DNA of 39,597 nt, from the NCBI GenBank assembly GCA_013792055.1, contig VMSQ01000078.1:1-39597 (forward strand), read 5' to 3'. The position numbers and the translations under genes are program-made. The DNA is from Desulfobacteraceae bacterium. Lineage in GTDB: Bacteria > Desulfobacterota > Desulfobacteria > Desulfobacterales > ETH-SRB1. This document shows, piece by piece, positions 12,536 to 34,342 of the stretch; position 1 is the stretch's first letter; the number at the start of each line of letters is the position of its first letter. The notes below the pieces were generated by a model. It was not told the origin of the DNA, did no database searches, and was given only the letters and a program-made list of their open reading frames with translations.

Positions 12536-12540
12536 TCAGC

Positions 12541-16441: not shown

Positions 16442-19400
16442 ATGGCCCGTCTCGAAGATCTTAAGGAAGGGGCAACGGTAAAAGGTGTTCGGCCAGATGG
16501 CCCCATTACCATCATCAACGTCAAATGGCACGGCGACGCTGTTGTAGAACTGACGTATAAGGACTCATCTGGACGGCCTGGAAATGAGCTGATCTTCAGA
16601 GATAGAGAGCCTACCTTTGAAGTGATCCAGCCTGGCCAATCCTGGAGCTTTGATGCCGATGCTGGGATGTTACGATTAGTATCGGAAGCCTATCGTATCA
16701 GAATGGCCTATATTTTTGACCCCCTTCTTGCCGTTCACACATCCATGATTGATCCTCTTCCCCATCAGATTACTGCAGTATACGAAGAAATGCTGCCACG
16801 CCAGCCTCTCCGATTTCTCCTCGCCGATGACCCAGGCGCTGGTAAAACAATAATGGCTGGCTTGCTTATAAAAGAATTGATGATCCGCGGCGATTTGGAT
16901 CGCTGTTTAATTGTATGCCCAGGAAATCTAGTGGACCAATGGCAGGATGAACTATATCGCCGGCTTCACCTCCCATTCGAGATATTGACAAATGATCGCC
17001 TGGAGGCTGCCCGCACAGGAAATGCCTTCCTGGAAATCCCCCTTCTCATTGCCCGCCTGGACAAACTGAGCCGTAATGAAGACATACAGGCAAAGCTTAA
17101 ACAAACGGACTGGGATCTCATTATATGCGATGAGGCTCATAAGATGTCTGCTTCGTTTTTTGGTGGCGAAATCAAAGAGACCAAACGTCGGAAACTCGGA
17201 AGATCTCTCTCCGAGCTCACTCGCCATTTTCTCCTGATGACAGCTACACCCCATAACGGTAAAGAAGAGGACTTCCAGCTATTTATGGCTTTGTTGGATG
17301 GAGATCGTTTTGAAGGCCGTTTTCGCGATGGCGTCCATGTAGCCGATGCCTCAGACCTTATGCGCCGGATGGTGAAAGAAAAATTGCTCAAGTTCGATGG
17401 CACGCCACTTTTTCCCGAACGCCTGGCGTATTCTGTCACATATCGCTTATCTGACCAAGAAGCCATTTTATATGAACAGGTAACCAGCTATGTACGGGAG
17501 GAATTTAACAGGGCAGACGCGCTTACAAATGAAGGCCGGAAAGGAACGGTTGGTTTTGCGCTAACCATCCTGCAACGCAGGCTTGCCTCTTCTCCAGAGG
17601 CCATTTACCAGTCCCTCCGGCGACGCAAGGAACGGTTGGAAAATCGCTTGCGGGAGGAAGAATTACTCAAACGTGGAGCAGAAGCCCGTTTTAGGTCAGA
17701 TAAGTGGCCGTCTCCTATGACGGAGGAGGATTTAGAAGATCTGGAAGATGCGACGGATGCCGAAGTAGAGGAAGCCGAAGAAAAAATTGTAGATCTTGCA
17801 ACGGCAGCCCAGACTATTGCTGAACTGCAAGCAGAGATCAACACACTGAAAAATCTGGAGGCACTTGCACTACAGGTTCGCCGTAGTGGGCAGGACAAGA
17901 AATGGGAAGAGTTATCCAAACTTCTTCAGGACAAGCCCGAAATGTTCGACAACCAGGGGTCAAGGCGCAAGCTGGTTGTTTTTACAGAATATCGGGATAC
18001 GCTCAGTTACCTGACCGATCGCATCAAAACCCTTCTAGGGCGTCCTGATGCAGTAATAAATATTCATGGGAGCATGGGAAGGGAGGATCGAAAAAAGTCC
18101 GAAGAAGCCTTCAAACAGGACAAGACCGTGCAGATACTTGTAGCTACAGATGCAGCCGGAGAAGGTATCAATCTCCAGCGGGCTCATCTAATGGTCAACT
18201 ACGATCTACCCTGGAATCCCAACCGCATCGAGCAGCGTTTTGGCCGTATTCACCGTATAGGCCAGACTGAAGTGTGCCACCTCTGGAACCTGATAGCTGA
18301 AGAAACCAGAGAAGGCGACGTGTATTTAACACTTCTCAGGAAGCTGGAGGCTGAAAGAGAAGCTCTTGGAGGTGCAGTATTCGATGTTTTGGGCAAGGCG
18401 CTTGGTGGTGTAGAATTGCGGAAATTACTCATTGAGGCCATAAGGTATGGCGAGAGATCTGATGTCCGCGCCCGGCTCACACAGCAGGTGGAAGAGGCCC
18501 TGGATACTGAACGATTGAAGGAATTGCTGGAAGAAAAAGCGCTCGCTCATGACTCCATGGACTCAAGCCGTGTTCGCCAGATTCGGGAGGATATGGAGCG
18601 CGCTGAAGCAAGGCGCCTGCAACCCCACTTTATCGAATCATTTTTTCTGGAGGCCTTTAAGCTATTGGGTGGAAACACACGAGAACGAGAACCAAGACGC
18701 TATGAGATCAAGCATGTGCCGGCAGTCATCAGGAATCGTGATCGGATAATAGGCATGGGCGAACCAGTTCTTATCCGTTATGAAAGAATTTGTTTTGAAA
18801 AGGATCTGATCAGTATTCCTGGGAAACCTCTGGCCACCTTTGTGTGTCCCGGCCATCCGCTGCTTGATTCAACTACAGACATTATCATGGAGCGCTATCG
18901 AGACCTCCTGAAGCAGGGCGCCGTTTTTATAAACGAATCAGATCCAGATGAAGAGATACATGCTCTCTTTTATCTTGAGCATTCCGTGGCAGATGCCCGA
19001 ACTGATAAGCATGGGAACCGCCGTGTGGTATCTCGTCAGATTCAATTTGTTGAGATCGATGAAAAGGGAAACACCATAAATGCCGGCTACGCACCATATC
19101 TGGATTACAGGCCTTTGACCGAGGACGAGCAGTCGCTGATAGCCCCTGAATTGGAATGCGCATGGTTACATGGCGATCTTGAATCACAGGCTAACAGTTA
19201 CGCTATTACCTACCTGGTTCCCCGGCATTTCAAGGAAATTAGAGATCGTAAGGAAGAATTAGCGGCCAAAACCATTGCTGCCGTTAAAGATCGTTTGACC
19301 AAGGAGATTGCCTATTGGGATCACCGGGCAGAGGAACTAAAGGCTCAGGAATTAGCGGGAAAAATCAACGCCAGAATTAATTCATCTAAGGCCAGAGCGC

Positions 19401-20017
19401 GTGCAGACAAGCTTCAAGCCCGCCTGCAAAATCGTCTGGATGAATTGGAAAAGGAACGCAAACTTTCCCCCCTTCCTCCGGTGGTAATGGGTGGCGCCTT
19501 AGTTGTGCCGGGAGGACTCCTCTCCCGCCTTAAAGGGAAACGAAAGGAAGTACCGGATCTTTTTGCCAGGGAGACCAAACGGATTGAACAGATGGCAATG
19601 CAGGCAGTAATGGATGTAGAGAAGTCTCTGAACTTTGTCCCGCGAGATGTGAGCCGGGACAATTGTGGATATGATATTGAATCTTCAATTCCTGATACGG
19701 GAAAGTTACGCTTTATCGAGGTTAAGGGCCGACTTCAGGGTGCAAAAACGGTTACGATAACCAAGAATGAGATTCTCACAGCCTTAAATAAACCCGATGA
19801 TTATATACTGTCAATCGTCCTGGTACCGCCATCAGAAACGCAACTTGAAACTGATCTATGGCAAATAAAAGAGCCCATGGCCGGCTATGGTAAAATATGG
19901 AATGATTGCCAAGTTTACTATATTCGCAGGCCATTTATCAGAGAACCCGATTTTGGCGTGACAAGCGTTAACTATAATCTTCAGGAATTGTTAGCCAATG
20001 CGGAGGTTCCCGGTTGA
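16442..20017 (+). CDS. SNF2-family helicase with C-terminal DUF3883-like (PD-(D/E)xK-type) domain
   Basis: 1191 aa. AGGAG SD. Motifs: LLADDPGAGKT, ICDEAHKMS, MTATPHNGKEEDF, ATDAAGEGINLQ, QRFGRIHRIGQ. Long coiled-coil region. The C-terminus has GYDIESS...LRFIEVKGR...ITKNE...YILSIV. Confidence 0.9.
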   Translation: MARLEDLKEGATVKGVRPDGPITIINVKWHGDAVVELTYKDSSGRPGNELIFRDREPTFEVIQPGQSWSFDADAGMLRLVSEAYRIRMAYIFDPLLAVHTSMIDPLPHQITAVYEEMLPRQPLRFLLADDPGAGKTIMAGLLIKELMIRGDLDRCLIVCPGNLVDQWQDELYRRLHLPFEILTNDRLEAARTGNAFLEIPLLIARLDKLSRNEDIQAKLKQTDWDLIICDEAHKMSASFFGGEIKETKRRKLGRSLSELTRHFLLMTATPHNGKEEDFQLFMALLDGDRFEGRFRDGVHVADASDLMRRMVKEKLLKFDGTPLFPERLAYSVTYRLSDQEAILYEQVTSYVREEFNRADALTNEGRKGTVGFALTILQRRLASSPEAIYQSLRRRKERLENRLREEELLKRGAEARFRSDKWPSPMTEEDLEDLEDATDAEVEEAEEKIVDLATAAQTIAELQAEINTLKNLEALALQVRRSGQDKKWEELSKLLQDKPEMFDNQGSRRKLVVFTEYRDTLSYLTDRIKTLLGRPDAVINIHGSMGREDRKKSEEAFKQDKTVQILVATDAAGEGINLQRAHLMVNYDLPWNPNRIEQRFGRIHRIGQTEVCHLWNLIAEETREGDVYLTLLRKLEAEREALGGAVFDVLGKALGGVELRKLLIEAIRYGERSDVRARLTQQVEEALDTERLKELLEEKALAHDSMDSSRVRQIREDMERAEARRLQPHFIESFFLEAFKLLGGNTREREPRRYEIKHVPAVIRNRDRIIGMGEPVLIRYERICFEKDLISIPGKPLATFVCPGHPLLDSTTDIIMERYRDLLKQGAVFINESDPDEEIHALFYLEHSVADARTDKHGNRRVVSRQIQFVEIDEKGNTINAGYAPYLDYRPLTEDEQSLIAPELECAWLHGDLESQANSYAITYLVPRHFKEIRDRKEELAAKTIAAVKDRLTKEIAYWDHRAEELKAQELAGKINARINSSKARARADKLQARLQNRLDELEKERKLSPLPPVVMGGALVVPGGLLSRLKGKRKEVPDLFARETKRIEQMAMQAVMDVEKSLNFVPRDVSRDNCGYDIESSIPDTGKLRFIEVKGRLQGAKTVTITKNEILTALNKPDDYILSIVLVPPSETQLETDLWQIKEPMAGYGKIWNDCQVYYIRRPFIREPDFGVTSVNYNLQELLANAEVPG

Positions 20018-23000
20018 GATTATCTCGCCCTGCATATTTCACTCGTGTGCAAGATGATGCCAGAAGGCGGTGGGATCAACTCGAAGCTGATCCTGTTCTG
20101 GCAGGGCCGTGGCATCAGTTGTTTCGGCAGGTTCAAAGCCCCCGGCATGTGCTTTCTGAACTGTTGCAAAACGCTGACGATGCCAAAGCCACATGGGTTC
20201 AGGCAACAATTAGCGATGGTCTTTTCGAGTTTGTTCATAATGGCGAGGATTTTGATGAGGAATCACTTCAATCAATATGCCAATTTGGACTTTCAAATAA
20301 ACGACACCTTCACACCATTGGATTTCGCGGTGTCGGATTCAAATCGGCCTTTGCCCTTGGACCACAAGTAGAGATAATTACGCCGTCATTAACTTACGGA
20401 TTTCATCATAAGCGATTCACTGAACCTATCTGGCTTGCACAACAAACAAGTTCTGGAGAGACAATCATCAGAGTGGCTATTGATCAAGCGTCCAAGATTA
20501 CGACCCTCCGTGCTGAATTTGATCGCTGGGTTAGAAGCCCTATACCCTTGCTTTTTTTTCATCATATAAAGCGGCTGGAAATTCAGAATCATGCTATACG
20601 CAGGGAAGTTCTGGGACCGGGACCGATGCCTAAAGCCGAATATATTCGACTTTCCAACGGCAAGACGATAGACGTACTGGTTGTCCATTCCGACCCTGAA
20701 GCCTTTCCCCAAGAGGTCATGGAAGAGATAAGAGATGAACGAGGATCAATGGAATTGGATCTTCCACCATGTGCCGTGCAAATTGTTTTAAGTGAAGCTG
20801 CTGAACATTTCCTTTACACCGTGTTGCCGACTGAGGTTAAACCCCTACTACCTTTTTCTTTCAATGGTCCATTTATGCAGGATCCGGCGCGTAGAGAAAT
20901 CAAACATCCCGTAAACTCGCCTACAAACAGATGGCTCCTTCAAAGAATCGGCCAATTGGCGTCAAATGCCATGAGGGGATGGTTGGATAACCAAGATATT
21001 GATGTCAAGGAGAGAGCACGTGCCTATGAACTGCTTCCGCGACATTCTGAAAAAGAAGATACCCTCGATGATGTCTGCACAAACTTAGTCATAGAAGAAT
21101 TCAAGAAATCGTTTTCTTCACACGAAAAAATCCTACTTGGACACGATGGGTCTCTTTTATCAAAAGACAATGTGGTAGCATTGCCAAAGGCTATTACCCA
21201 AACGTGGCCACCTGAGCAGGCGCTGAATATTTTCGCTCCGCACAGAAAAAAAGTCCTTTCTCAAGACATCCGAAAGCGATCATTTGATTCTTTGAAGAGT
21301 TGGAATGTCCTTGACGAGCTGGACATAAAAGACATCGTAGGGAAACTTCTTTCAATGACCGAGGCAGGGCCTTTTTGTCCCAAGCCATTAGAAAGGCTTT
21401 TCCATCTGTGGGCATATTTACAACCCCTTTCTTCACCCGATTCCCGGGAGCTAAAAAAGATAATTCGTAAACTGCCGATTGTGCCCGTATCGGGGAAAAA
21501 AGAACTTTTACCTGCGGAAGATGTCCTGGTTCTCGGGGGCAGGGAATGGGAGGTTTCCGATGAGAATAAGGATTTTTTGATGTCTCGGGTGGATGTAGCT
21601 GATCCGGCCTGGGTTAAGCTGATGACAAACGTTGATGAAGAAAAGATTGAAAAACACCATGCTCTTGCCTGTGATTTTTTTAATAAGCTTAACCTTTATC
21701 AAAGGGTGGGCGTGGAACAGGTTGTTGCAGCAGCGGCAAAAAAGATTTTCAACTCATCCAACGATCTGGATGAAGAAGGAATAAGACTCGCACGGATTGC
21801 TGCTTTTTCTGATGTTAGAATTCAGGATGATTTTAAGTTTCTCTGTCAGGATGGGCAATGGCGTACAACAACTTCAGAACTTCTTGTCCAGGGTAGCGAA
21901 GACCTTGAGGCTCTTCTGCCATGGGATATTTTCAGTATAAAAGTGATATCGGATGATTATGAAAAAGGACTTCCTTCTAAAGATATTGAACGCTGGCGAA
22001 CGTGGGCCGGAGATTTTCTAAAAAGTAAACTGTTATGCTTTCCTGTGCCGTTACTGAGCAAGGAAACAGTACAGAAAAATCATTCAGACATTTCTAAGTT
22101 ATGTATCAGTAGAGGTGGGAACGCTCCATCCTCTTACCCACTCAAAAGCCATTATTTCCAAATACATGATTATAACTGGGATGAAAACATCTGGTTTGAG
22201 TGGCAGGATATGGAGGAAGATAGGCCAGGTTTTTTAAGTGAGGTACTTCGGGCAATTCTGCAGAACTGGTCTGAAATCTGGGAAAAAAGAGTAGGCGCAA
22301 AAGTGTTTCAGGAAGGTCATACCTACATACGTACTTTAGACCATGGTAATCTCAGGGCTGCATGGCTCCAAAAGCTTCGTAATCTTAGCTGTCTTCCGGA
22401 TACTTTTGACAATTGTTACCTGCCGGCAGAGTTATATCGGAGAACACTGGATACGGAAGCTCTTTTAAACATAGAGAAATTTGTCCATCACGATTTTGAT
22501 AAACCGCAATATTCAAAAATTCTTGATCTGCTTGGCGTACAAAGTCAACCGACAGGTGTAGACCCATTGTTAACTCGTTTGAAAGACTTGTCAAAGACCA
22601 AAACGCCTCCAATTACGCATCTCGTAGATCTTTATCGTGCCATAGACCGTGTACTTCTCAGAATGGATACAAGAGAAACCGCTAAACTGAAAAGATCCTT
22701 CAACGAAAATGCCCTGATCTACACAGATGGTCATGATTGGGAAAAGTTAAACACCGTTTTTAGAGACAATCCGGAAGATATTCCAGGAGTTCGTCTAATA
22801 CATCCGGAGGCGGCTAATCTGGCTATGTGGGACCGCTTTGAGGTTCCCCGCCGGCCAACGCTCGGAATGGCCATTGCATGGCTTAAAAGCAAGCCATTAG
22901 ATCAATCTCTGAATAAACCTGACAGGGAACGAGCCATTGAAATTCTCCGTCGGGCACCTGCACAAACATGGCAGGAATGTCAGGCATGGCTCGATGTAAC

Positions 23001-24186
23001 AGGCCGCTGGGTCTCTAAATCTGACCTTAAATGGTACACAAATAACATCCAGACCATATCCGGGCTATTCAGCCCCTTTAAACGGCGGACAGCAGATCTA
23101 TCAATACTGGATGGCACTGCAAACATCGATTTTATTCGCGATGCAGGTTTGAATGCTTTGGATAATCTGATCGAACATCGACTCGAAAGCCGGGTCTTTG
23201 CAAATCACGTTTCAAAACCAAGCTGGTTATTAAGACTGGCCGACATTCTACTGAGGCTTCGAAGACCTGACGATAATGAAACATCTGAAAATCTGAAAGT
23301 TGTATATGAATCGGAACGCAGTCTTGCTTCACGTTTGAAAAAAGTCAAATGGCAGCCAGTCCATAATCTCAAAGTTATTCCTTACATCAATAGTGAACAA
23401 GCAGGATCACCCAGTGAGCGTAAAGTAATTTGGCAGGATGATTCTATTTATGTCCAGGGAAGTCCACCCGCCCACCATCCTGAACTCATAAATGAATTAT
23501 CGCGACACTTTCAGACACACGATGTAAAAAAGATTATTGCCGATTGCGTTGATCGTGATCCGGAGTGGATTGACGTTTATGCGGATGAACATCTTGATCT
23601 CGAGGATTTACCTTCAGAGGAAACATCTGTTAGTAAGCCTCCAGAAGAAGATAAAAAAATAGCGACAGAACCACCTGTTACTGTGGAAACCCCTCCAGAA
23701 AAAATCTTGGATAATGGGAAAGAACATGAGCAACATAAAGACAATGAGGACGAAGATGACAAAGGTGAAGACAAACTCCGCACAAAGTCCCCCATAACGA
23801 GTCCTGATTCCGTCAAGAAAGGTTTTAAATCTTTCCTTGATAAACTTGGCTTCACCTGGGTTCCACAGCATGAATACTTCGCGGATAATAACGGAACAAT
23901 CATCCGCAAAACTGAACCACCATTTAAGTGGGCGGAATATAATGTTTCTGGGGAACGTATTGGAAGCTACTGGGTAGGCCGAGGTTCTCTGGAAAATGGG
24001 GTTGAAATCCCCGCCGATATCTGGAATCAAATACTTACCGATAACCAACAAATTTTCATCATACTGATTGATAGTCCATCCGTTTCAAGATATAAATTGT
24101 CTGACCTCAAAGATATGGTAAATCTGGGTAAAATCGAGATATATCCAACCCGAATGATCATCCGCACAAGGGATCAGATTGAATGA
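20014..24186 (+). CDS. Giant GHKL (sacsin/MORC-like Bergerat-fold) ATPase protein
   Basis: 1390 aa. The N-terminus has SELLQNADDAKA, HNGEDF and IGFRGVGFKSAF. There is an acidic low-complexity linker near residues ~1190-1250 and a small C-terminal domain of unknown type. The TTG start overlaps the upstream TGA (TTGA). The first in-frame ATG is ~200 codons in. Confidence 0.8.
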   Translation: MRLSRPAYFTRVQDDARRRWDQLEADPVLAGPWHQLFRQVQSPRHVLSELLQNADDAKATWVQATISDGLFEFVHNGEDFDEESLQSICQFGLSNKRHLHTIGFRGVGFKSAFALGPQVEIITPSLTYGFHHKRFTEPIWLAQQTSSGETIIRVAIDQASKITTLRAEFDRWVRSPIPLLFFHHIKRLEIQNHAIRREVLGPGPMPKAEYIRLSNGKTIDVLVVHSDPEAFPQEVMEEIRDERGSMELDLPPCAVQIVLSEAAEHFLYTVLPTEVKPLLPFSFNGPFMQDPARREIKHPVNSPTNRWLLQRIGQLASNAMRGWLDNQDIDVKERARAYELLPRHSEKEDTLDDVCTNLVIEEFKKSFSSHEKILLGHDGSLLSKDNVVALPKAITQTWPPEQALNIFAPHRKKVLSQDIRKRSFDSLKSWNVLDELDIKDIVGKLLSMTEAGPFCPKPLERLFHLWAYLQPLSSPDSRELKKIIRKLPIVPVSGKKELLPAEDVLVLGGREWEVSDENKDFLMSRVDVADPAWVKLMTNVDEEKIEKHHALACDFFNKLNLYQRVGVEQVVAAAAKKIFNSSNDLDEEGIRLARIAAFSDVRIQDDFKFLCQDGQWRTTTSELLVQGSEDLEALLPWDIFSIKVISDDYEKGLPSKDIERWRTWAGDFLKSKLLCFPVPLLSKETVQKNHSDISKLCISRGGNAPSSYPLKSHYFQIHDYNWDENIWFEWQDMEEDRPGFLSEVLRAILQNWSEIWEKRVGAKVFQEGHTYIRTLDHGNLRAAWLQKLRNLSCLPDTFDNCYLPAELYRRTLDTEALLNIEKFVHHDFDKPQYSKILDLLGVQSQPTGVDPLLTRLKDLSKTKTPPITHLVDLYRAIDRVLLRMDTRETAKLKRSFNENALIYTDGHDWEKLNTVFRDNPEDIPGVRLIHPEAANLAMWDRFEVPRRPTLGMAIAWLKSKPLDQSLNKPDRERAIEILRRAPAQTWQECQAWLDVTGRWVSKSDLKWYTNNIQTISGLFSPFKRRTADLSILDGTANIDFIRDAGLNALDNLIEHRLESRVFANHVSKPSWLLRLADILLRLRRPDDNETSENLKVVYESERSLASRLKKVKWQPVHNLKVIPYINSEQAGSPSERKVIWQDDSIYVQGSPPAHHPELINELSRHFQTHDVKKIIADCVDRDPEWIDVYADEHLDLEDLPSEETSVSKPPEEDKKIATEPPVTVETPPEKILDNGKEHEQHKDNEDEDDKGEDKLRTKSPITSPDSVKKGFKSFLDKLGFTWVPQHEYFADNNGTIIRKTEPPFKWAEYNVSGERIGSYWVGRGSLENGVEIPADIWNQILTDNQQIFIILIDSPSVSRYKLSDLKDMVNLGKIEIYPTRMIIRTRDQIE

Positions 24187-24210
24187 ATGGTAAGTAAGGA
24201 TTGTTAACTT

Positions 24211-25464
24211 ATGGAGACAAGAAAGAAAAAACTGATTGAGGTCGCCCTTCCTCTGGATGCGATTAATCGAGAATCGGCAAGGGAAAAATCCATCCGGCAC
24301 GGTCATCCCAGCACCCTGCATTTATGGTGGGCGAGACGACCTTTGGCGGCTTGCCGAGCCGTCCTTTTTGCTCAATTGGTAGATGATCCATCAAGCCATC
24401 CAGACAAGTTCCCTACTGAGGAAGCCCAGAAAAAAGAAAGAGAGAGGCTTTTTAATATCATTGAAGAAATGGTGAAATGGGAGAACATCAATAATGAACG
24501 GGTTCTGGAAAAGGCACGAAAGGAAATCCTGAAATCTACAGATGGCAATCCACCTCCTGTGTTAGATCCATTTTGCGGGGGCGGTTCAATTCCATTGGAA
24601 GCTCAGAGGTTGGGGCTCAAGGCATATGCCAGCGATCTTAACCCAGTAGCAGTTCTCATTACCAAGGCCCTTATTGAGATTCCTCCCAAGTTCGCCGGCA
24701 GGTCACCGGTTCACCCCGGGGCTCAAACTTCTTCCCAATCGCACGGGGCAAAGGGACTGGCCGAGGATGTGCGCTATTATGGGAAATGGATGCGGGATGA
24801 GGCTGAAAAACGTATAGGTAACCTTTATCCCAAGGTCAAGCTGCCGGAGGAATATGGTGGGGGTGAGGCCACGGTGATTGCCTGGTTGTGGGCAAGAACC
24901 GTCAAATGTCCTAATCCTACTTGTGGAGCTCAGATGCCGCTTGTGAGATCGTTTGCCCTTTCGACCAAGAAAGGCAAGCAGGCATGGGTGAAGCCGATGG
25001 TGGAGGGGAATCAGTACCGTTTCGAGGTGAGAACAGGTGAAGGCAAGCCCCGAGAGGGAACAATGAATAGACGAGGAGCAACTTGTCTTTGCTGCAGAAC
25101 ACCTGTGCCGTTTGATCATATTCGTGCAGAAGGAAAGGCTGGCAGAATGCGCCAGAGGCTTATGGCGATTGTGACCGAGGGGCCAAGAAAAAGGATATAT
25201 TTAGAAGCAGATACCGAGCATGTAAGGGTTGCTAAAAAGGCGGAACCTAAATGGAAGCCAGGCGGGGAGTTACAGGGAAAATGCAGGGTTAGTGTGCCTC
25301 TCTATGGAATGAACACATTTGCTGACCTCTTCACCCCCCGCCAGCTCGTCGCCCTGACCACCTTCAGCGATCTGGTGATGGAGGCGCGGGAGCGGGTTCA
25401 TGAAGATGCCATCAAGACCGGGATGACGGATGATGGCAAGGGGCTGGACGATGAAGGAACTTGA
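24211..25464 (+). CDS. DUF1156-type DNA methyltransferase, N-terminal part (SAM-binding motif, Zn ribbon)
   Basis: 417 aa. Motifs: [56 protein letters not shown]...CLCCRTPVP. It ends at TGA 25462-25464, in frame with the next ORF. Confidence 0.85.
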
Positions 25465-25467
25465 GCA

Positions 25468-26997
25468 ATGGGGTATGCTGATGCAGTGGCGACGTATTTG
25501 GCGTTCGCTGTGGATAAAGGTTCGAACTATTGGTCTTCCCTGTGCGCTTGGCATTCTGGTCGTGACATTATCATGAGCACCTTTGCCAGACAGGCATTGC
25601 CTATGGTATGGGACTTTACAGAGGCCAATCCGTTTAGTAGTTCAAGTGGAAATATCCTCTTGGGAATAAGTCAAGCATCTCAGATGTTGGATAAAGTCCC
25701 AGCAAGCCTCCAAGCATTGACCAGACAGCTCAATGCAACTGAAACCATAAACAATGTCAATCATCCTTTGATTTGTACAGATCCCCCTTACTATGACAAT
25801 ATCGGATACGCAGATCTATCCGACTTCTTTTATGTCTGGCTCAGACGTTCCATTGGAAAAATATATCCAGATCTTTTCAGCACCATGCTGGTGCCCAAGG
25901 CGGAAGAACTGGTTGCCACGCCATATAGATTTGGTGGAAATAAAAAAGATGCCCGCAGGTTTTTTGAGGAAGGTTTGCGAAGGACTTTTATCAGGATGAA
26001 AAAGACCGCTCACCCGGAGTATCCCCTGGCTGTGTACTATGCATTCAAACAGTCTGAAAGCGATTCAAATATCAAAGACGGCAATGGAAACAGCGCTGTT
26101 GCCTCCACCGGCTGGGAGACAATGCTTGAAGGACTTTTGGCCTCGGGTTTCCAGATCACAGGCACCTGGCCTATGAGAACAGAACTCATCACAAGCCTAA
26201 AGAAAAGTGTGAGTGCGTTGGCTTCTTCCATAATTCTTGCCTGCCGTCCCCTGCCTGAAGACGCCCCCATGACCACGCGCCGCGATTTTATCAACACAAT
26301 GAAGCGCGAACTCCCCCCGGCTCTCAAGACCCTCCAGCAGGAAAACATCGCACCAGTTGACCTGGCACAATCCGCCATTGGCCCCGGCATGGCGGTCTTT
26401 TCCAAATACAGCAAAGTCCTGGAAGCAGATGGAACCCCTATGCGTGTTCGTGCGGCGCTGGCTCTTATCAACCAGGTGCTGGACGAGTATCTGGCAGAAC
26501 AGGAAGGGGAATATGATGCTGATACCCGCTGGGCATTGGCCTGGTTTGAACAGTTTGGTATGATGGAAGGTCCTTACGGAGTTGCAGAGATCCTGTCGAC
26601 AGCCAAGAACACGGCTGTGGGCGGCCTTGTGGCGGCAGGTATAATTATATCCAGAGCGGGCAAGGTTAGAATTCTCCGGCGTGATGAATTGCCCGAGGAT
26701 TGGAACCCTGCAACTGATAAGCGTCTTACAGTCTGGGAGGTAACACAACATCTGATTCGCGTCCTTGTGGACAAGGGCAGCGAGGAGGTGGCAGCAGATC
26801 TTCTCAGAAAGGCCGGCGCCCTGGGCGATGTTGCAAGGGATTTGGCATACCGACTTTATACCATATGTGATCGAAAGAAATGGGCACAGGAGGCCTTGGC
26901 GTACAATAGCCTGGTGGTTGCCTGGCCAGAGTTGGTCAAGCTGGCGGGTCAAAAAGAAGTGAAAGGACCTTCACAGCAACAGTTGTTCGAGGGATAA
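25468..26997 (+). CDS. DUF1156-type DNA methyltransferase, C-terminal part (catalytic DPPY motif)
   Basis: 509 aa. Has TDPPYYDNIGYADLSDFFYVWLR. Same frame as 24211-25464, separated only by TGA-GCA. GAAGGA lies 9 nt upstream of its ATG. Confidence 0.85.
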   Translation: MGYADAVATYLAFAVDKGSNYWSSLCAWHSGRDIIMSTFARQALPMVWDFTEANPFSSSSGNILLGISQASQMLDKVPASLQALTRQLNATETINNVNHPLICTDPPYYDNIGYADLSDFFYVWLRRSIGKIYPDLFSTMLVPKAEELVATPYRFGGNKKDARRFFEEGLRRTFIRMKKTAHPEYPLAVYYAFKQSESDSNIKDGNGNSAVASTGWETMLEGLLASGFQITGTWPMRTELITSLKKSVSALASSIILACRPLPEDAPMTTRRDFINTMKRELPPALKTLQQENIAPVDLAQSAIGPGMAVFSKYSKVLEADGTPMRVRAALALINQVLDEYLAEQEGEYDADTRWALAWFEQFGMMEGPYGVAEILSTAKNTAVGGLVAAGIIISRAGKVRILRRDELPEDWNPATDKRLTVWEVTQHLIRVLVDKGSEEVAADLLRKAGALGDVARDLAYRLYTICDRKKWAQEALAYNSLVVAWPELVKLAGQKEVKGPSQQQLFEG

Positions 26998-27007
26998 TGG
27001 AAAGATT

Positions 27008-27044
27008 ATCACGAAAGCACGGAAGAAATTCGTGTTTTCGTGAT
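27008..27044 (+). promoter_or_regulatory. Intra-operon 14-bp stem-loop
   Basis: atcacgaaagcacg / cgtgttttcgtgat (13 Watson-Crick pairs plus 1 G-U) with loop gaagaaatt, between the methylase stop and the RBS of the DUF499 gene. No downstream T-tract. Confidence 0.55.
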
Positions 27045-27064
27045 TAATAAAGAGAGGTCTTCAC

Positions 27065-30000
27065 ATGGCAATAAGTAATAGTGAAAGAATCGGAAAGGGC
27101 TTGGAGTTTCTCCGAAATGGTCTGGTTCCCTTTGTAGAGAGGGAATTGGAAGCGGTATATGGGGACGAATGGCAGGAAAAAGCCAGACAGAGCATATCCA
27201 AAGAGAGGGACTGGAAAGTTGAAAAAGGAAAGATTCAATGGGATGTCTATCTGATCCTGATGATCCTCTGGAATCACTGGAACGACGTTTTCAGGCGCAC
27301 ACTTGGTCAAGCGGAACGATCCTACGTGAGTGAACTCAGGGAAGCCCGGAATCGCTGGGCACACCAGAACGCGTTCACCTATGATGACACCTATCGTGTT
27401 CTTGATACCATGATCCGGTTGCTCAGATCTGTGTCGGCAAAAGAAGCAGATGCGGTTGATAAAATCGCCCAAGAGACGATGCGTGTCCGTTTTGCCGAAC
27501 AGTCCCGTCTCGAAACGCGCAGGAAAACTGTAGCACCTATTGACGGCAGCCCATCTCCGGGTCTGAAGCCCTGGCGCCAAGTTGTCACGCCACACCCGGA
27601 TGTTGCCAGTGGTCGCTATCAGCAGGCAGAATTTGCCGCAGACTTGGAGCAAGTTCGTTCCGGCCATGCGAGTGGAGAATATGGAGAACCGCGGGAATTT
27701 TACCGACGGACATTCCTCACTGTTGGATTAAAGGATCTCTTGAAAGAGGCCATTCTTCGATTGACAAAACAGGGTGGCAGCCCAGTGGTAGAGCTACAGA
27801 CAAACTTTGGAGGGGGGAAAACCCACTCTATGCTGGCGCTATATCATTTCTTCTCGGACATCCCTGCCAATGAGCTGACAGGAGTAGAAGAAATTCTTGA
27901 GTCAACGGGCATTACGTCAACGCCAAAAGTTAAACCTGCCGTTTTAGTTGGAACCGCCCTCAACCCTGGCCAGTCTCACATCAAGGATGACGGCACAGAG
28001 ATTAGAACCTTGTGGGGGGAATTGGCATGGCAACTGGGAAAAGCTGAAGGTTATGGATTAGTGGCAGGGAATGACGCCAATGGAACCAGCCCCGGCTCCC
28101 AGGTTCTCTGTGATCTGTTCAAACGATACAATCCCTGCCTGATCCTTATAGACGAATGGGTGGCCTATGTCCGGCAGACCTATGGGAAGACAGGCTTGTC
28201 TGGAGGAAGCTTTGACGCCAATATGACATTTGCCCAGGCCCTTACGGAGGCCGCACGAGGAACGCCCGGCACCATGCTTGTGGCGAGTATTCCATCTTCC
28301 GATATTGAGATCGGAGGTGATGGAGGAAAAGAGGCCTTGACCAGACTGAAAAACACCTTCGGTCGAATGGAATCCCCGTGGCGCCCGGCCAGTGCTGAGG
28401 AGAGTTTCGAGATTGTGAGGCGCAGATTATTTGAGCCCATTGCAGACCCCAGGGATTTTGCCGCAAGGGATGCCGTAATTAAGGCATTCGGCCAGCTCTA
28501 TCGAGGAAACAAAGCAGAATTCCCTCAGGGATGTGGGGAAGGTGATTACGAGCGTCGACTGGAAAAGGCATATCCTATTCATCCTGAGCTTTTCGACAGG
28601 TTGTACGAAGACTGGGGCAGTCTCGAACGGTTTCAAAGAACCCGAGGTGTGCTGAGACTGATGGCTGCTGTGATATCAGAGCTCTGGGATCGCCAGGATG
28701 CCGGCCTCTTGATCATGCCAGCTTCCGTGCCGATGGATGCGTCTGCGGTCCAGTCTGAGCTGACTCGTTACTTGGAAGATGCTTGGCGCCCTGTGATGGA
28801 AAAGGATGTGGACGGCACGGAGGCCTTGCCATTAAAGATAGACCGCGAGGTGCCCACATTGGGCAGATATTCTGCTTCAAGACGTGTGGGTCGAACAATT
28901 TACATGGGTTCAGCACCTCTTTCAAAAACCAAGAACCCAGGAATAGACGACCGACGTATTCGATTGGGATGTGTCCAGCCTGGTGAAAACGTAGCGACAT
29001 TTGGCGATGCTTTAAGGCGGCTCACAGATCAGGCGACCCATCTCTATGTTGATGGCAAGCGTTACTGGTATTCCACGCAGCCCAGCGTTACACGTCTGTC
29101 TCAGGACCGGGCTGCACAACAGGATATTGATGCCGTATGGGATGATCTCAATCGTCGTCTCAGGGGTGATCGCCAGCGTGGAGAATTTGCTGCTGTCCAC
29201 ACCGTTCCCGGATCAAACGCCGATGTGCCGGATGATATGGAAGCACGGCTTGTAATCTTAGGACCGGATAAACCACACTCCGGCAAAACACCAGATAGTA
29301 AAGCCCGACTTGAGGCTGAACAAATACTCAATAACAGGGGAAACAGTCCTCGAATCTACAAAAATATGCTGGTTTTTCTTGCGCCGGATAAAGCCCGCTT
29401 GAATGACCTGGAACAGGCCATTCGTAATTATCTGGCCTGGAATTCCATATGGAAAGAAAGAGAGGCCCTGAACCTGGATGCATTTCAGTCCAACCAAGCA
29501 TCCACTAAACAAGAACAGGCGGAAGAAACGATTGAAAGCCGTATCAAAGAGGCCTATGCCTGGCTCCTCGTTCCGTTACAGCCAGATCCTCGGGGAGCAA
29601 TAGAATGGCAAGAATCTCGCCTTCAAGGTCAAGATGCCCTTGCTATAAGGGCCAGCAAAAAGCTCAAAAATAACGAGAATCTTATCACTCAGTTCTCCCC
29701 CACCCGTCTACGTTTGGAGCTGGACCGTTATCTCTGGAAAGAAACTGATCATCTTAACCTGAAAAAGCTCTGGGAATATTTCGCTACGTACCTTTATTTG
29801 CCGCGTCTTAAGGACAGTCAAGTGTTGATCCAGGCTGTGCAGGACGGTGTCCAACAAATTACTTGGGCAGACTACTTCGCTTATGCAGAAGGATGGGATG
29901 AGAAAAAGAAAAGATATCTTGGTCTCAAGGCAGGACAATTGACATCCATTCTTTTGGATAGCCAAAGTCTTATTGTTAAGCCAGAGGTTGCAAAAAGGAA

Positions 30001-30343
30001 GATAGATGCGAAAAAGGAAGAAGAGGAAGTAATTATTGACGTGGTGACAGGTGGGGAAAGGCCCGGAGAAGAGGAAATTGGTCCTGAGGAGCCAGCCAGC
30101 CCAGCCCAGCCCAGGCGCTTTTATGGTTCAGTCAAGCTGGATGCTACGAGACTCGGAAGGGATGCAGGAAGAATAGCTGAAGAAGTCGTACAGCATCTTT
30201 CAGCCATTGTTGGTGTAAACGTGGAAATCAGCCTCGAAATCAGCGCCCAAATCCCTGATGGAGCTTCTGATAACGTTGTCCGAACCGTTACCGAAAATTG
30301 TAACACACTACATTTCACATCCTATGGATTTGAAGAAAAATGA
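27065..30343 (+). CDS. HEPN (Swt1-like) + DUF499 P-loop ATPase (BrxC/PglY-related)
   Basis: 1092 aa. GAGAGG SD. N-terminal RNRWAH (Rx4H) at nt 27347-27364. Walker A NFGGGKTHSM, Walker B LILIDEW. YPIHPELFDRLYEDW...FQRTRGVLRLMA is the signature shared by DUF499/BrxC-type ATPases. Confidence 0.88.
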   Translation: MAISNSERIGKGLEFLRNGLVPFVERELEAVYGDEWQEKARQSISKERDWKVEKGKIQWDVYLILMILWNHWNDVFRRTLGQAERSYVSELREARNRWAHQNAFTYDDTYRVLDTMIRLLRSVSAKEADAVDKIAQETMRVRFAEQSRLETRRKTVAPIDGSPSPGLKPWRQVVTPHPDVASGRYQQAEFAADLEQVRSGHASGEYGEPREFYRRTFLTVGLKDLLKEAILRLTKQGGSPVVELQTNFGGGKTHSMLALYHFFSDIPANELTGVEEILESTGITSTPKVKPAVLVGTALNPGQSHIKDDGTEIRTLWGELAWQLGKAEGYGLVAGNDANGTSPGSQVLCDLFKRYNPCLILIDEWVAYVRQTYGKTGLSGGSFDANMTFAQALTEAARGTPGTMLVASIPSSDIEIGGDGGKEALTRLKNTFGRMESPWRPASAEESFEIVRRRLFEPIADPRDFAARDAVIKAFGQLYRGNKAEFPQGCGEGDYERRLEKAYPIHPELFDRLYEDWGSLERFQRTRGVLRLMAAVISELWDRQDAGLLIMPASVPMDASAVQSELTRYLEDAWRPVMEKDVDGTEALPLKIDREVPTLGRYSASRRVGRTIYMGSAPLSKTKNPGIDDRRIRLGCVQPGENVATFGDALRRLTDQATHLYVDGKRYWYSTQPSVTRLSQDRAAQQDIDAVWDDLNRRLRGDRQRGEFAAVHTVPGSNADVPDDMEARLVILGPDKPHSGKTPDSKARLEAEQILNNRGNSPRIYKNMLVFLAPDKARLNDLEQAIRNYLAWNSIWKEREALNLDAFQSNQASTKQEQAEETIESRIKEAYAWLLVPLQPDPRGAIEWQESRLQGQDALAIRASKKLKNNENLITQFSPTRLRLELDRYLWKETDHLNLKKLWEYFATYLYLPRLKDSQVLIQAVQDGVQQITWADYFAYAEGWDEKKKRYLGLKAGQLTSILLDSQSLIVKPEVAKRKIDAKKEEEEVIIDVVTGGERPGEEEIGPEEPASPAQPRRFYGSVKLDATRLGRDAGRIAEEVVQHLSAIVGVNVEISLEISAQIPDGASDNVVRTVTENCNTLHFTSYGFEEK

Positions 30344-30898
30344 AATGAAAACAGGTGGTCTGCTCTTGACTCATGTTAGTGTGAAATCCGAATTGATATT
30401 GAGTTCAAAGCCTTGCCCGAATTTCAGAGCAGGTTACGTTTGAAAAAGGGACTATGGTTCGATGTTTGGGGACGATATGCATTATAGTTTCTACTTATGA
30501 AAACAGTTGAGTAGTACTTTTGTCTATCCATCTGCTGCTGTTCTCAAAGTTCCGGTTGTTGCTATCTGCTAACAATCTTGATTGTTTTGCAACGCAAAAA
30601 GGGTTTTGATATCTGTTATCTCGACATTATTCAGCTATACCAAGATGTATAAAAATAATTATCGAGTATTTCCAGCACTTGAAGTGTTGATAAATTCTAC
30701 ATGTTTTTTTAAGCAGGCCGCCCTATGTGTCACCATATAGGATGTCTCGGGCTTCTGGTTTGTCATTGTAGTTTTCATTTGCCTGCATTTTGGAGATTTA
30801 GTAATATTATATTTAAGGGCTATGAAAAAAGAAAGGAAAGGTGGGAGGAGATAGCTGACCTAATGCTAACTCCTCACTATTTTATAAACAATAAATCA

Positions 30899-31650: not shown

Positions 31651-32063
31651 GCTAATGAATTCGGAACCGGTTGAAAAATACCAATTCCTCTATCACTATT
31701 TAAAGAAAAAGATACGAAGCCTGATAAAATATTCTAAAGAAAGTTCTTTAAATTTATGTTGTTTTGCGGGGGGGTGTGCGTGGTCTTGGTGGTACATATT
31801 TATGTGCAGGTTCCAAGGCAGAGAAAGCCACCAAATCCCCCGCCCACCCTTTGCCTTCGCTCCCTCGCTTCGCATCGGTCGCTTGCCCCCCGCTAAAAAA
31901 GGAAGAAAACCCAATCAGACGGGAGTACGTATTCAACTATTAAAGCTGCTTGCGCCGGTGCATTAATTCTGGCTTGTTTTTACCTATAAAGGGCGGTATT
32001 AAGGACTGTACTTTTATAATATCATGAAAACATCACAATCTTTTGATACCAAAATATATTTGG

Positions 32064-32897
32064 ATGCTGATATCAAAAGTTTTGAAAGTCCGAAAAGTGA
32101 TTGAAGAGAATGCATTAAACATTTACACAGATGGATCCTCATATTCTAAACCACGTCGTGGAGGATATGGTATTAGGATAATCTATGTAGATGATCAAGG
32201 AAAAGAAAGAATACAAGATATTCCAATTTTTAAAAGCTTTGCCGGTGCAACAAACAATCAAATGGAACTTCTTGCTTGTGTTACAGCAATTGAAGAATCT
32301 AAAAAATCAAAATATTATTCCAAAGTGAGAAAAATAAATATTTTTACCGATTCGATGTATGTCTCACAGAATTACAATACTGCTATATTTCGTTGGTCGG
32401 TCAATAAGTGGCTGACAAGAGATAATAACCCCGTAGCAAATGCAGAAATTTGGAAAAAACTAGTAAGAGTAATAAAAAAATCCAACAAGAGAATAGATAT
32501 AAAATGGGTCAAAGGTCATTCAAGGGATGAACATAATCGGAGAGTTGATCAACTTGCAAAACAATCTGCTAAAAGTTCACTAAAAGCTACACCACTAAGT
32601 GTTGTTAATGTTAGAAGAAAAAAAACAAATAAGGCTGTAAATATAGGTTGCGTTGTAACGAAGGGTCAACGGATTTCAATCAGAATTATTACTGATGAAT
32701 ATTTAAGAACACAAAAAATCAATAAATATCGATATGAAGTAATTTCCAAAGGAAGTAAATATTATGGACTTGTAGATTTCATATTTTCAAAAATAAATCT
32801 AAAAGCAGGTCATGAATATGTCGTAACATTCAACACATGTACGAAATCACCAAGAATTTTAAAGTTAATACATGAAATTGACAAAAAAACTATTTAA
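32064..32897 (+). CDS. RNase HI-domain protein with ~100-aa C-terminal extension
   Basis: The track ORF opens at TTG 32043; the first ATG is at 32064. All RNase HI catalytic positions are present: IYTDGS, TNNQMEL, IFTDS, WVKGH, RVDQLA. The extension (VNVRRKK...RYEVISKGSKYYGLVDF...) is unrecognised. Very AT-rich. No obvious SD. Confidence 0.75.
   Translation: MLISKVLKVRKVIEENALNIYTDGSSYSKPRRGGYGIRIIYVDDQGKERIQDIPIFKSFAGATNNQMELLACVTAIEESKKSKYYSKVRKINIFTDSMYVSQNYNTAIFRWSVNKWLTRDNNPVANAEIWKKLVRVIKKSNKRIDIKWVKGHSRDEHNRRVDQLAKQSAKSSLKATPLSVVNVRRKKTNKAVNIGCVVTKGQRISIRIITDEYLRTQKINKYRYEVISKGSKYYGLVDFIFSKINLKAGHEYVVTFNTCTKSPRILKLIHEIDKKTI
32069..32094. repeat. Perfect 26-bp direct repeat, copy 1
   Basis: gatatcaaaagttttgaaagtccgaa, identical to 33047-33072. 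It lies within RNase H codons 2-11. Confidence 0.9.
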
Positions 32898-32951: not shown

Positions 32952-33050
32952 TCAGCACCGTAACAAATTGAAACGCTTTAATATTTGTGATATACAAATT
33001 CTATCTGCATGAAAATTATTGAATTCTTGATTTGCTCTGCTGGCAAGATA
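32952..33050 (-). pseudogene. C-terminal fragment of a homologue of the 16124-16360 small ORF
   Basis: Open for 32 codons only (YLASRANQEFNNFHADRICISQILKRFNLLRC*), with TGA immediately upstream. 17/29 residues are identical to the 16.2 kb copy. The truncation point coincides with 26-bp repeat copy 2. Confidence 0.5.
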
Positions 33051-33223: not shown

Positions 33224-34342
33224 ATGAATGACAAGAAAGCCGCATATGATGCTGAAAACGATATTGTCGACATGCTGGATGAAGCTGATGAGAGTATTCC
33301 TTATGTATACTCCATAACATCATACGGCGCAGATTACCCCGTTGACTCACTTGTAAAAAGAATTCAGAAAGAAGATATAGTTGTTCCAACCTTCCGATGG
33401 AATTCAGAAGAAGAGACTACGGTTGTGGGGTTTCAACGTGAATATGTCTGGAACCAGGCAAAAGCCGATAAATTTATTGAGTCTTTGTTGTTAGGTCTGC
33501 CAGTTCCGGGAATATTTCTCGTGAAAGAGCCTTCGGGTCGACTTCTTGTTTTAGATGGACATCAGCGATTGCACACACTTGCTTCATTCTACAGAGGGAT
33601 TCTTGAGGGCAAGGAGTACAGTTTACGAAATGTTCAGGAGCAATTTAAGGGAAAAACCTATGATAACCTTGACATTGAAGATCGGCGTCGACTTGACGAT
33701 AGCATCATGCACGCAACGATCATTCGGCAAGATGAACCGACTGAGGACCAAAGCAGCATCTATGTGATATTCGAGAGACTGAATACCGGAGGTGTTAACT
33801 TGCAGCCGCAGGAAATTAGAGTCGCTCTTTACCATGGCGAATTCGTCCGAGTATTAAATGAGTTAAACAATAACACTAACTGGAGATTATTAGTTGGAAA
33901 ACCTTCGCGTAGGCTAAAAGACATGGAGCTAATACTTCGGTTTCTGGCATTTCTCTTCTATTCAGATCAATACAAACGACCTATGAAGGATTTTCTAAAT
34001 AAATACATGGCTACAAATCGATATTTAAAACGTCAATCTGAACATCAACTAAAGGATATATTTGATAGAACCGTTCAGGCTATTATTGATTCGGCTGGAA
34101 CAAAAGCATTCCGGCCCAGGAGATCAGTTAATGCAGCTACCGTTGACTCAATGATGACGGGTATTGCCAAAAGAATTATAGACAAGGGAGTGATCAAGAA
34201 TACCGGGGTACTCACCGAAAGGATTGAAAGATTACTTCAAAATCAAGCTTATTTAGTCGCAATTGAAACAGGAACATCGGAAGAAGGAAAAGTGAAGGAC
34301 AGAATGGAGGCTGCAACTTTGGCATTTGCCGACATCACATGA
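33224..34342 (+). CDS. DUF262 (ParB-like/GmrSD N-terminal type) domain protein
   Basis: 372 aa. AAGGA SD. Motifs: FQREYVWNQAKADKFIESLLLGLPVPGIFLV...LVLDGHQRLHTL (DGQQR-type) and FERLNTGG. There is no DUF1524/HNH-like C-terminus. Confidence 0.8.
   Translation: MNDKKAAYDAENDIVDMLDEADESIPYVYSITSYGADYPVDSLVKRIQKEDIVVPTFRWNSEEETTVVGFQREYVWNQAKADKFIESLLLGLPVPGIFLVKEPSGRLLVLDGHQRLHTLASFYRGILEGKEYSLRNVQEQFKGKTYDNLDIEDRRRLDDSIMHATIIRQDEPTEDQSSIYVIFERLNTGGVNLQPQEIRVALYHGEFVRVLNELNNNTNWRLLVGKPSRRLKDMELILRFLAFLFYSDQYKRPMKDFLNKYMATNRYLKRQSEHQLKDIFDRTVQAIIDSAGTKAFRPRRSVNAATVDSMMTGIAKRIIDKGVIKNTGVLTERIERLLQNQAYLVAIETGTSEEGKVKDRMEAATLAFADIT

Follow-up and report, generated by a model that had tools for sequence, protein, structure and literature searches.

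The DNA analysed here (a stretch of 39,597 nucleotides, referred to below as 'the window') comes from an uncultured Desulfobacterales bacterium and carries, on a tRNA-Asn-linked island, an operon of the Hma (Type-1 BREX-related) class. The Hma defence system consists of a helicase, a methylase and an ATPase, termed HmaA, HmaB and HmaC (Payne et al. 2021, PMC8565338), and is also named the Type-1 DUF499-centred BREX-related (BR) system (PMC12839542). Loci of this class are recognised by co-oriented genes with at most three embedded genes among the hma genes, and such embedded genes are common in Hma systems (bioRxiv 10.1101/2024.01.29.577857). In the window, all of the genes lie on the forward strand with one embedded gene (20014-24186), and both HmaA and HmaC are full-length proteins with very strong matches to their PADLOC models (Table 1). 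The gene for HmaB, a DUF1156 N6-adenine methylase, does not encode one intact protein in this allele, and instead is interrupted by a TGA at codon 418. Broken genes were also seen in other Hma loci that were fetched (hmaA in L009-L011; hmaB in L075, L078 and L039). No near-identical DNA was found in a search of E. coli genomes and plasmids.

Table 1. Features of the Hma operon and of the interruption in hmaB, in window coordinates
Feature	Position	Strand	Basis or remark
hmaA: SNF2 helicase with C-terminal NOV_C (nuclease) domain, intact	16442..20017	+	PADLOC HmaA 1712 bits, model 1-1171 of 1176; Pfam SNF2-rel_dom, Helicase_C, NOV_C
Embedded 1390-aa GHKL/HATPase_c-sacsin-like gene (PADLOC TmtA-like) in the hmaA/hmaB interval	20014..24186	+	Pfam and PADLOC
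hmaB N-terminal part, 417 aa: DUF1156 helical domain, SAM-binding motif I DPFCGGGS, Zn-ribbon/TRD insert	24211..25464	+	Pfam DUF1156 E 4.8e-34; PADLOC E 1.5e-171
SD-like GAAGGA (codons Glu415-Gly416), 9 nt 5' of ATG 25468	25453..25458	+	Same bases in intact P0123
In-frame opal stop TGA replacing Gly418 of HmaB	25462..25464	+	Polymorphic base 25462: T here, G in the intact allele
ATG (Met420 of the intact protein), candidate reinitiation codon 3 nt past the stop	25468..25470	+	Sequence
hmaB C-terminal part, 509 aa if reinitiated at ATG 25468: motif IV DPPY, C-terminal helical domains	25468..26997	+	PADLOC E 4.2e-190
Polymorphic base in hmaB C-terminal part: G in the window, A in two other TGA-bearing assemblies; synonymous (GCG/GCA)	26394..26394	+	Assembly comparison
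hmaC: DUF499 AAA+ ATPase with N-terminal Swt1-type HEPN domain, intact	27065..30343	+	PADLOC HmaC 1105 bits, model 3-941 of 941; Pfam HEPN_Swt1, DUF499
Polymorphic base in hmaC: C in the window, A in the JGI TGA-bearing contig; codon position 2, Ala125Glu	27438..27438	+	Codon position derived from coordinates

The interrupted reading frame

The sequence around the break reads, 5' to 3', ...GAT GAA GGA ACT TGA GCA ATG GGG.... A preliminary description of this DNA had proposed that a single methyltransferase gene is cut here, with only one stop and one alanine codon separating its two parts, and both the coordinates and the translations agree: the open reading frames at 24211-25464 (417 aa) and 25468-26997 (509 aa) share a frame (25468 - 24211 = 1257 = 3 x 419), and the TGA is the sole interruption across the 928-929 codons of hmaB. 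When compared with the PADLOC HmaB model PDLC00660 (967 positions), the two parts match positions 8-468 and 472-965, respectively; because together they cover a single model nearly end to end, they are best regarded as one gene that has been cut once. The catalytic elements are divided between the two parts as had been described, with DPFCGGGS (residues 118-125) and a Cys-rich Zn ribbon (CPNPTC...CLCC) visible in the N-terminal translation, and DPPY (as TDPPYY) in the C-terminal one.

An interruption of this kind might be bypassed during translation, through insertion of selenocysteine, programmed readthrough, or a variant code in which UGA specifies glycine. The stop does fall in a glycine column of the HmaB alignment, and UGA is translated as Gly in genetic code 25; in addition, UGA is the leakiest of the stop codons, such that a trace of full-length protein (probably carrying Trp) is possible. 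However, TGA is the terminator of 9 of the 23 ORFs listed in the window (the N-terminal part of hmaB counted, and panB, hmaA and hmaC among them), and many of these are genuine genes that end where the homologous models end; a variant genetic code was rejected on the basis of this usage. No other in-frame TGA was found in the neighbouring genes of 1191, 1390 and 1092 aa. The possibility of a SECIS element or a readthrough structure was rejected as well, because the fold predicted downstream of the TGA is no better than that of shuffled sequence (z = -0.10) and an Rfam search returned no family match. Finally, no homologue among 120 proteins has a stop in the column of codon 418, and a sibling allele has GGA at that position. 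The hallmarks of recoding (a downstream signal, a UGA that is kept in homologues, and a UGA that is unused as a stop) are therefore missing at this locus, and the three versions of this explanation are largely refuted, with a probability that is close to negligible.

Conservation of codon 418 and the two alleles of hmaB

The interrupted gene was compared with its 120 best protein homologues, and with 82 homologous copies in 80 genome loci. The stop column is occupied by Gly in 100 of the 120 aligned homologues, and two relatives examined at the DNA level (L007 and L009) have a GGA codon there. All 120 proteins are single chains of approximately 930 aa, and a split at the site of codon 418 was found in none of them, nor in any of the 82 genome copies. 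The alignment with single-chain DUF1156 methylases that the preliminary description had recommended thus places the TGA opposite a glycine, and the conserved natural split that would have rendered the interruption unremarkable does not recur in either set. The split is not kept in orthologues, as it is in naturally divided methylases, and the nearest relative is itself intact.

That relative (P0123, 928 aa) was found in the 90% cluster of the C-terminal part, and corresponds residue-for-residue to the fused product of the window, with Gly at position 418. It is encoded in NCBI GCA_018900475.1, ENA ERZ27247124, Logan SRR9644742 and three further samples. A comparison of the window with one intact contig (L094) over 14,227 bp (16166-30392) identified position 25462 as the sole difference, with G in place of T; two more contigs (L092 and L093) likewise have G at that position. 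Across the assemblies of both alleles, hmaB has just one substitution besides 25462. The suggestion that the TGA arose by recent nonsense mutation, for which GGA had been named as one possible ancestral codon, is confirmed by these sibling assemblies, which have GGA in an otherwise identical operon, and by the glycine of the homologues.

The TGA allele is also present in ENA ERZ27247111, JGI 3300015049 and Logan SRR6516019, and one of the TGA-bearing loci (L001) translates exactly to the 509-aa product. With the window included, the TGA allele is represented by four assemblies and by three haplotypes that differ slightly, and some of these assemblies may share reads. These observations bear upon a simpler explanation, that the T at 25462 was introduced in error during sequencing or assembly and that hmaB is really intact. 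The presence of the intact allele in near-identical contigs is what such an error would predict, and the TGA-bearing assemblies may in part have been built from a common set of reads. Nevertheless, an error is very unlikely, because the TGA recurs on haplotypes that differ at 26394 and 27438; furthermore, it appears in the window and in assemblies produced by three pipelines (ENA/MEGAHIT, JGI and Logan), there is no homopolymer or repeat at 25462, and systematic errors do not typically take the form of a G-to-T substitution. Since both alleles are found in public assemblies of essentially one strain, the difference represents a segregating polymorphism rather than an evolved gene architecture. 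Of 413 columns with conservation of at least 90%, the window deviates from consensus in 12 (2.9%, against a median of 3.1% for intact homologues), and this level of departure, which indicates no general decay, fits a very young mutation.

The coexistence of both states in closely related populations, together with the fact that one T-to-G change restores hmaB, might also be taken to indicate that codon 418 is a reversible on/off switch (a contingency locus) for the methylase, and the preliminary description had indeed raised a 'stop-codon switch'. No mechanism for such a switch is apparent, because the site has neither a repeat nor a homopolymer. Phase-variable loci are recognised by a simple-sequence repeat or an invertible element; there are no tandem repeats in 25200-25700 (and switching based upon repeats was rejected for this reason), and no homopolymer, repeat, hairpin or invertible element at the site itself. 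The change is a plain base substitution without an elevated switching rate, for which the phylogeny supports only the direction from GGA to TGA, and a switch appears highly improbable.

The sequence context for reinitiation

The preliminary description had further proposed that the break is accompanied by a 'restart signal', in the form of GAAGGA located 9 nt before an ATG. The sequence elements are present (GAAGGA at 25453-25458), and the predicted energy of the duplex between GAAGGA and the anti-SD sequence is -5.7 kcal/mol, as compared with a median of -5.9 for the gene starts of the window and -5.9 kcal/mol for the start of hmaB itself. The idea that they evolved as a restart signal does not hold: GAAGGA and the ATG, along with E415, M420 and G421, are ordinary coding sequence that is already found in the intact allele P0123, and so they pre-existed the stop and are not an adaptation to it. 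Among the conserved columns that adjoin the stop, 2 of 4 deviate from consensus, versus 10 of 409 elsewhere, and Met is found in the column of ATG 25468 in just 3 of the 120 homologues. The cluster formed by E415, M420 and G421 was considered as a product of relaxation after the split, or of selection for a start codon, and was rejected on both counts because intact P0123 has the same residues. By chance, 12.5% of internal in-frame ATGs match the SD energy of the restart site. Of the 328 nonsense mutations that single-base changes could produce in hmaB, only 2 fall where an ATG lies within two codons and the SD is equally good, and a comparable restart context is found at 0.6% to 5.8% of the possible sites, depending upon the definition used, a statistic that is post hoc.

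The location of the break within the fold was judged from an AlphaFold model of a homologue with 78% identity. Because that model is of moderate quality overall (pLDDT 71, pTM 0.47), it was used solely to place residue 418, which falls in a well-predicted loop (pLDDT ~86) between helices 376-401 and 419-440; the model suggests that this loop is a position where a cut in the backbone could be tolerated. A Foldseek search of the model against the PDB returned only weak, generic matches to class-I methyltransferases (best E 0.088), and the sole match in a PDB sequence search was a 33-residue motif-I stretch of a tRNA methylase (E 0.12).

Together, these features raise the question of whether the nonsense allele still works. 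Translational coupling would then produce both halves in similar amounts, and fragment complementation would yield an active two-subunit methylase; the polymorphism would be nearly neutral, and would persist because the stop happened to hit one of the few harmless sites. The SD energy at the restart site is at the level of real starts, and few of the possible nonsense sites in hmaB are so friendly to a restart, but that statistic was formulated after the fact. The break lies in a confidently modelled loop between two long helices, where a restart would cost only Gly418-Ala419; yet the cut also falls within DGGxGAxAYADA, a Gly-rich motif of high conservation, and leaves the catalytic strand of the Rossmann fold on a different chain from strands 1-2. 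There are natural methylases made of two polypeptides (M.AquI and M.EcoHK31I), and fragments of M.SssI can complement each other (PMC3404938), but the known examples are C5-methylases that are cut in their variable region, and homologues of HmaB that are split at this site are absent from both the protein and the genome sets. An immediate restart would spare hmaC from polarity, and the TGA allele has persisted for long enough to be found on three haplotypes; however, the 14-kb operon otherwise matches that of the intact contig L094 exactly, which leaves no evolutionary time for selection to have acted. On balance, an allele that still functions in two pieces is conceivable but doubtful, and the specific scenario of an 'instant split', in which reinitiation is coupled, the halves reassemble into active HmaB, and the stop was placed by chance, is judged unlikely. 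If it were true, the locus would capture a gene fission at its first step, with the intact allele continuing to segregate in the same population, and evidence that a DUF1156/BREX-type N6-methylase can withstand being divided between motifs I and IV would be available for the first time.

Consequences of the nonsense allele and comparison with known systems

The explanation favoured here, which is considered likely, is that the G-to-T change at 25462 is a recent, segregating nonsense allele of hmaB, and that it has most likely disabled the modification arm of the system or greatly reduced its activity. The fact that near-identical sequences elsewhere keep the intact gene points to a very recent and ordinary nonsense variant, rather than to a designed two-part enzyme. 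A very recent transversion has converted the conserved Gly418 codon (GGA) to an opal stop. Ribosomes would be expected to terminate after Thr417, freeing a 417-aa fragment that contains the SAM-binding half, and some of them may restart at the fortuitous SD and ATG 3 nt further on to generate the 509-aa catalytic half. Because the single-chain methylase would be lost, the modification arm would most likely be inactive or strongly weakened; judged from sequence, the allele is probably one of loss of function. The outcome may represent an early step in the decay of a defence gene, or a knock-out that is tolerated or selected.

It had been suggested that the helicase and nuclease partners would thereby be left without their modification arm. 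This is plausible, but its consequences appear less dramatic than was implied, and may be tolerable, because HmaA alone is reported to be non-toxic in E. coli and hmaB is absent from 14.7% of hmaA loci (PMC11232893).

For annotators, the appropriate call at this locus is one interrupted hmaB, rather than two genes. Public metagenomes contain this 14-kb Hma operon in both its interrupted and its intact form, a natural isogenic pair of modest value which, given reads or long-read methylomes from the samples, could be used to ask which DNA motif HmaB modifies and whether a methylase of the DUF1156 class works in two pieces. The pair also bears upon the survival of cells that have intact HmaA and HEPN-HmaC but no methylase, and hence upon whether Hma/BR systems are restriction-like (where loss of the methylase is harmful) or BREX-like (where its loss is harmless).

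As it stands, the locus carries a young nonsense allele of an ordinary kind, within a defence operon that is already known. It resembles other Hma/Type-1 BR systems in having three core genes on one strand, an N-terminal HEPN domain in HmaC (as described for most Type-1 BR systems), and one gene embedded in the hmaA/hmaB interval (a feature of 63-67% of Hma loci); it differs in that hmaB is broken by one opal codon, whereas the 120 closest HmaB proteins are all single-chain. Curated Hma sets leave out pseudogenes. Like ordinary nonsense pseudogenes and loss-of-function alleles in defence islands, it has one point mutation and no other lesions, and the ancestral allele is present intact in the same population; nothing substantial sets it apart except the chance position of the stop, 3 nt upstream of an ATG that has a good SD. 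With M.AquI (alpha/beta), M.EcoHK31I and the engineered split forms of M.SssI and M.HhaI, it shares the distribution of catalytic motifs over two polypeptides and the presence of adjacent, potentially coupled ORFs. Those enzymes, however, are C5-cytosine methylases that are split in or near the variable region, and for which the split is a fixed functional state, whereas hmaB encodes an N6-adenine methylase in which a days-to-years-old SNP falls in a conserved motif, with an intact sibling and no split homologues.

Alleles of the interrupted methylase gene

The gene hmaB, which encodes the DUF1156 adenine methylase of the Hma operon, is interrupted at codon 418 by a TGA that is best described as a nonsense polymorphism of recent origin in a known defence system, a G-to-T change converting Gly418 to opal. 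Translated in one frame, 24211-26997 comprises 929 codons with one internal and one terminal stop, and the former is set in the reading ...GAT GAA GGA ACT TGA GCA ATG GGG TAT.... Motif I (DPFCGGGS) and a Cys-rich Zn ribbon lie 5' of the TGA, and TDPPYY lies 3' of it; DUF1156 is present in the N-part (Pfam), and a single PADLOC HmaB model covers both parts (positions 8-468 and 472-965 of 967; E 1.5e-171 and 4.2e-190). Sequence and ORF translation agree with every detail of the cut methylase in the preliminary description (stop, frame, motif placement, GAAGGA and ATG).

Features of hmaB, its operon and the surrounding island
Feature	Position	Strand	Remarks
tRNA-Asn	5593-5668		start of operon-bearing island; abuts recombinase gene
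Large serine recombinase	5627-7207	minus	adjoins tRNA-Asn
Five consecutive ORFs	8242-15516	minus	877, 132, 413, 391 and 540 aa; after serine recombinase
Embedded 1390-aa gene	20014-24186	+	between hmaA and hmaB; N-terminal GHKL/HATPase_c-sacsin-like region
hmaB N-part ORF, 417 aa	24211-25464	+	same frame as C-part
GAAGGA	25453-25458	+	9 nt ahead of ATG 25468
In-frame TGA	25462-25464	+	sequence
ATG after stop	25468-25470	+	sequence
hmaB C-part ORF, 509 aa	25468-26997	+	same frame as N-part
Polymorphic base	26394		G or A; synonymous
Polymorphic base, hmaC codon 125	27438		C or A (A in JGI TGA-bearing contig); Ala125Glu, end of HmaC HEPN domain
284-aa RNase H-domain protein	32043-32897		just upstream of DUF262/HEPN pair
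ATGA-coupled gene pair	33224-34806	+	DUF262/GmrSD_N protein, then 155-aa RiboL-PSP-type HEPN protein

A cluster look-up with both halves placed in the 90% cluster of the C-part a 928-aa protein, P0123, which equals the window's fused translation exactly, residue 418 being Gly, and carries E415, M420 and G421. It is encoded at L092 (NCBI GCA_018900475.1, contig JAHIGD010000192.1), L093 (ENA ERZ27247124) and L094 (Logan SRR9644742 and three further samples). Across 14,227 bp (16166-30392, essentially the whole operon) the sole difference between L094 and the window is 25462, G rather than T; the base is also G in L092 and L093, whose only other differences are intergenic and cluster near 31.7 kb. 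The TGA allele occurs in ENA ERZ27247111, JGI 3300015049 and Logan SRR6516019 (L001-L003), in sequences that differ from the window and from one another. From the GGA-bearing siblings and these non-identical TGA-bearing sequences we infer that the stop is a real, derived and very young allele on at least three haplotypes (the read sets of the assemblies possibly not being independent), which segregates beside the intact ancestral allele; this confirms an origin by recent mutation of GGA, one of the first proposals.

The change at 27438 is the operon's second non-synonymous variant and is confined to the nonsense haplotype. The sibling assemblies diverge most between genes at 31700-31800, a stretch that includes a G7 tract (31767-31773), with several SNPs and, in L092, a 3-nt insertion of G; contigs of two other assemblies stop within it (at 31749 and 31766). 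Either this spot varies between strains or in homopolymer length, or it is difficult to assemble.

The split is not a family feature. All 120 best HmaB homologues (64-82% identity) are single-chain proteins of 916-1185 aa, mostly about 930 aa; P0123 was absent from that search, its cluster being represented by the window's own 509-aa product. The stop column aligns with Gly in 100 of the 120, within a conserved motif (DGG-x-G-A-x-A-Y-A-D-A), and two relatives' loci (L007 and L009) have GGA at the equivalent codon. None of 82 full-length hmaB copies from 80 loci in species-representative genomes is broken at this position, which disposes of a split shared by many homologues; three of them (L039, L075 and L078) are damaged elsewhere. 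The window deviates at 12 of 413 columns conserved at 90% or more (2.9%), matching the intact homologues' median of 3.1%, so hmaB is not otherwise decaying. Two loci, L040 (1501-7139; a Roseiflexaceae MAG) and L052 (927-6590; an Anaerolineales MAG), each carry two tandem, diverged full-length hmaB copies with 51-61% identity to the query.

The Hma operon and its island

The operon encodes the Hma system described by Payne et al. 2021 (PMC8565338); a recent re-description classes it among the BREX-related systems, as Type-1 and DUF499-centred, and proposes that the methylase marks self DNA (PMC12839542). Upstream of hmaB, hmaA encodes an SNF2 helicase with NOV_C (PADLOC HmaA, 1712 bits); downstream, hmaC encodes a DUF499 ATPase (PADLOC HmaC, 1105 bits) whose N-terminus carries a Swt1-type HEPN domain. 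The 1390-aa protein, itself uncharacterised, has partial matches to PADLOC TmtA (Tiamat-like; E 1.3e-54), and its gene fits the pattern of Hma-embedded defence genes, embedded genes being found in about 63% of Hma systems (bioRxiv 10.1101/2024.01.29.577857). The gene begins with a TTG that overlaps the stop of hmaA (TTGA); in other pipelines the protein has 1379 aa and begins at a start codon further downstream, at 20047.

The tRNA-Asn and serine recombinase genes mark the edge of an integrated island carrying the operon, near panB, hisS and aspS (AspRS shares 92% identity with the enzyme of a Desulfobacterales MAG). The five minus-strand ORFs match nothing in Pfam or PADLOC; they may form an unrecognised operon, perhaps one with a defence role. 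The DUF262/GmrSD_N protein matches PADLOC NsnA (E 5e-67) and PD-T4-2_A (E 5e-52). Diverged direct repeats (75-88% identity, 30-83 nt) link 15986-16246, upstream of hmaA, with 32965-33047, 35188-35244 and 36366-36395, which flank the DUF262/HEPN pair upstream and downstream; they may be shared regulatory sequence or cassette-insertion scars.

Tolerance of methylase loss

Published work says that loss of HmaB is tolerable: HmaA on its own is reported not to be toxic in E. coli, and 14.7% of hmaA loci are without hmaB (PMC11232893). Breaks in Hma genes occur in relatives as well. In L009-L011 (HmaB 75% identical) hmaA consists of two overlapping ORFs (about 6029-9603 in L009/L010), one of 768 aa with the SNF2 domain and one of 451 or 362 aa with NOV_C, which suggests a frameshift. 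That HmaA and HEPN-HmaC are intact while the methylase is broken is in itself no argument for retained methylase function. The L009-L011 locus also has a nucleotidyltransferase gene between hmaB and hmaC, and L007 (HmaB 78% identical) carries different hmaA-hmaB cargo (4749-7152), a 270-aa ORF and, side by side, two BrxC_BrxD-domain ORFs of 398 and 389 aa, possibly the two pieces of a single broken ATPase gene.

The polymorphism is another case of something already known and adds little that is new. Its only broader use lies in the isogenic Hma operon pair, one base apart, that public data hold; from this pair one could learn the HmaB motif and whether losing the methylase is harmless.

Recoding, restart and the two halves

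A genetic code with UGA as Gly is excluded by stop usage in the window, which places the organism on the standard code: TGA ends panB, hmaA, hmaC and others (9 of 23 listed ORFs, the hmaB N-part included), and no in-frame TGA occurs in the neighbouring ORFs of 1191, 1390 and 1092 aa. Folding of the 100 nt that surround and follow the stop is no more stable than that of shuffled sequence (z = -0.10), and no Rfam match was found around it. Tandem repeats and homopolymers are absent from the site, which leaves no mechanism for rapid switching and the suggested ‘stop-codon switch’ unsupported.

E415, M420 and G421 are rare in the homologues (0, 3 and 5 of 120). Their explanation by relaxation after the split and selection for a start codon was rejected, since intact P0123 has them all; GAAGGA and the ATG are therefore older than the stop, and what had been called a restart signal reads as fortuitous, already-existing coding sequence.

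That the two halves are made by restart and still function as a two-subunit methylase is unlikely, if not negligibly so. Pairing of SD and anti-SD at the restart site (-5.7 kcal/mol) is as strong as at the window's real starts (median -5.9) and at hmaB's own start (-5.9), though 12.5% of internal in-frame ATGs also reach this strength. Only 2 of 328 (0.6%) possible single-base nonsense mutations of intact hmaB would have an ATG at most two codons away with so good an SD, a statistic that is post hoc, and 5.8% would when any start codon within five codons is counted. An AlphaFold2 model (mean pLDDT 71) of P0004, a 78% identical homologue with the same numbering, places residue 418 in the loop that joins helices 376-401 and 419-440 (local pLDDT about 86). 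Survivorship, in that only harmless stops persist, lends the two-piece idea some weight. However, no homologue is split at this site, and selection has had no time to act. Methylases of two polypeptides, or of complementing fragments, are known (PMC3404938), but these are C5-methylases in which the cut falls in a variable region; the nonsense polymorphism in hmaB, unlike them, cuts a conserved motif and parts the SAM-binding strands from the catalytic strand.
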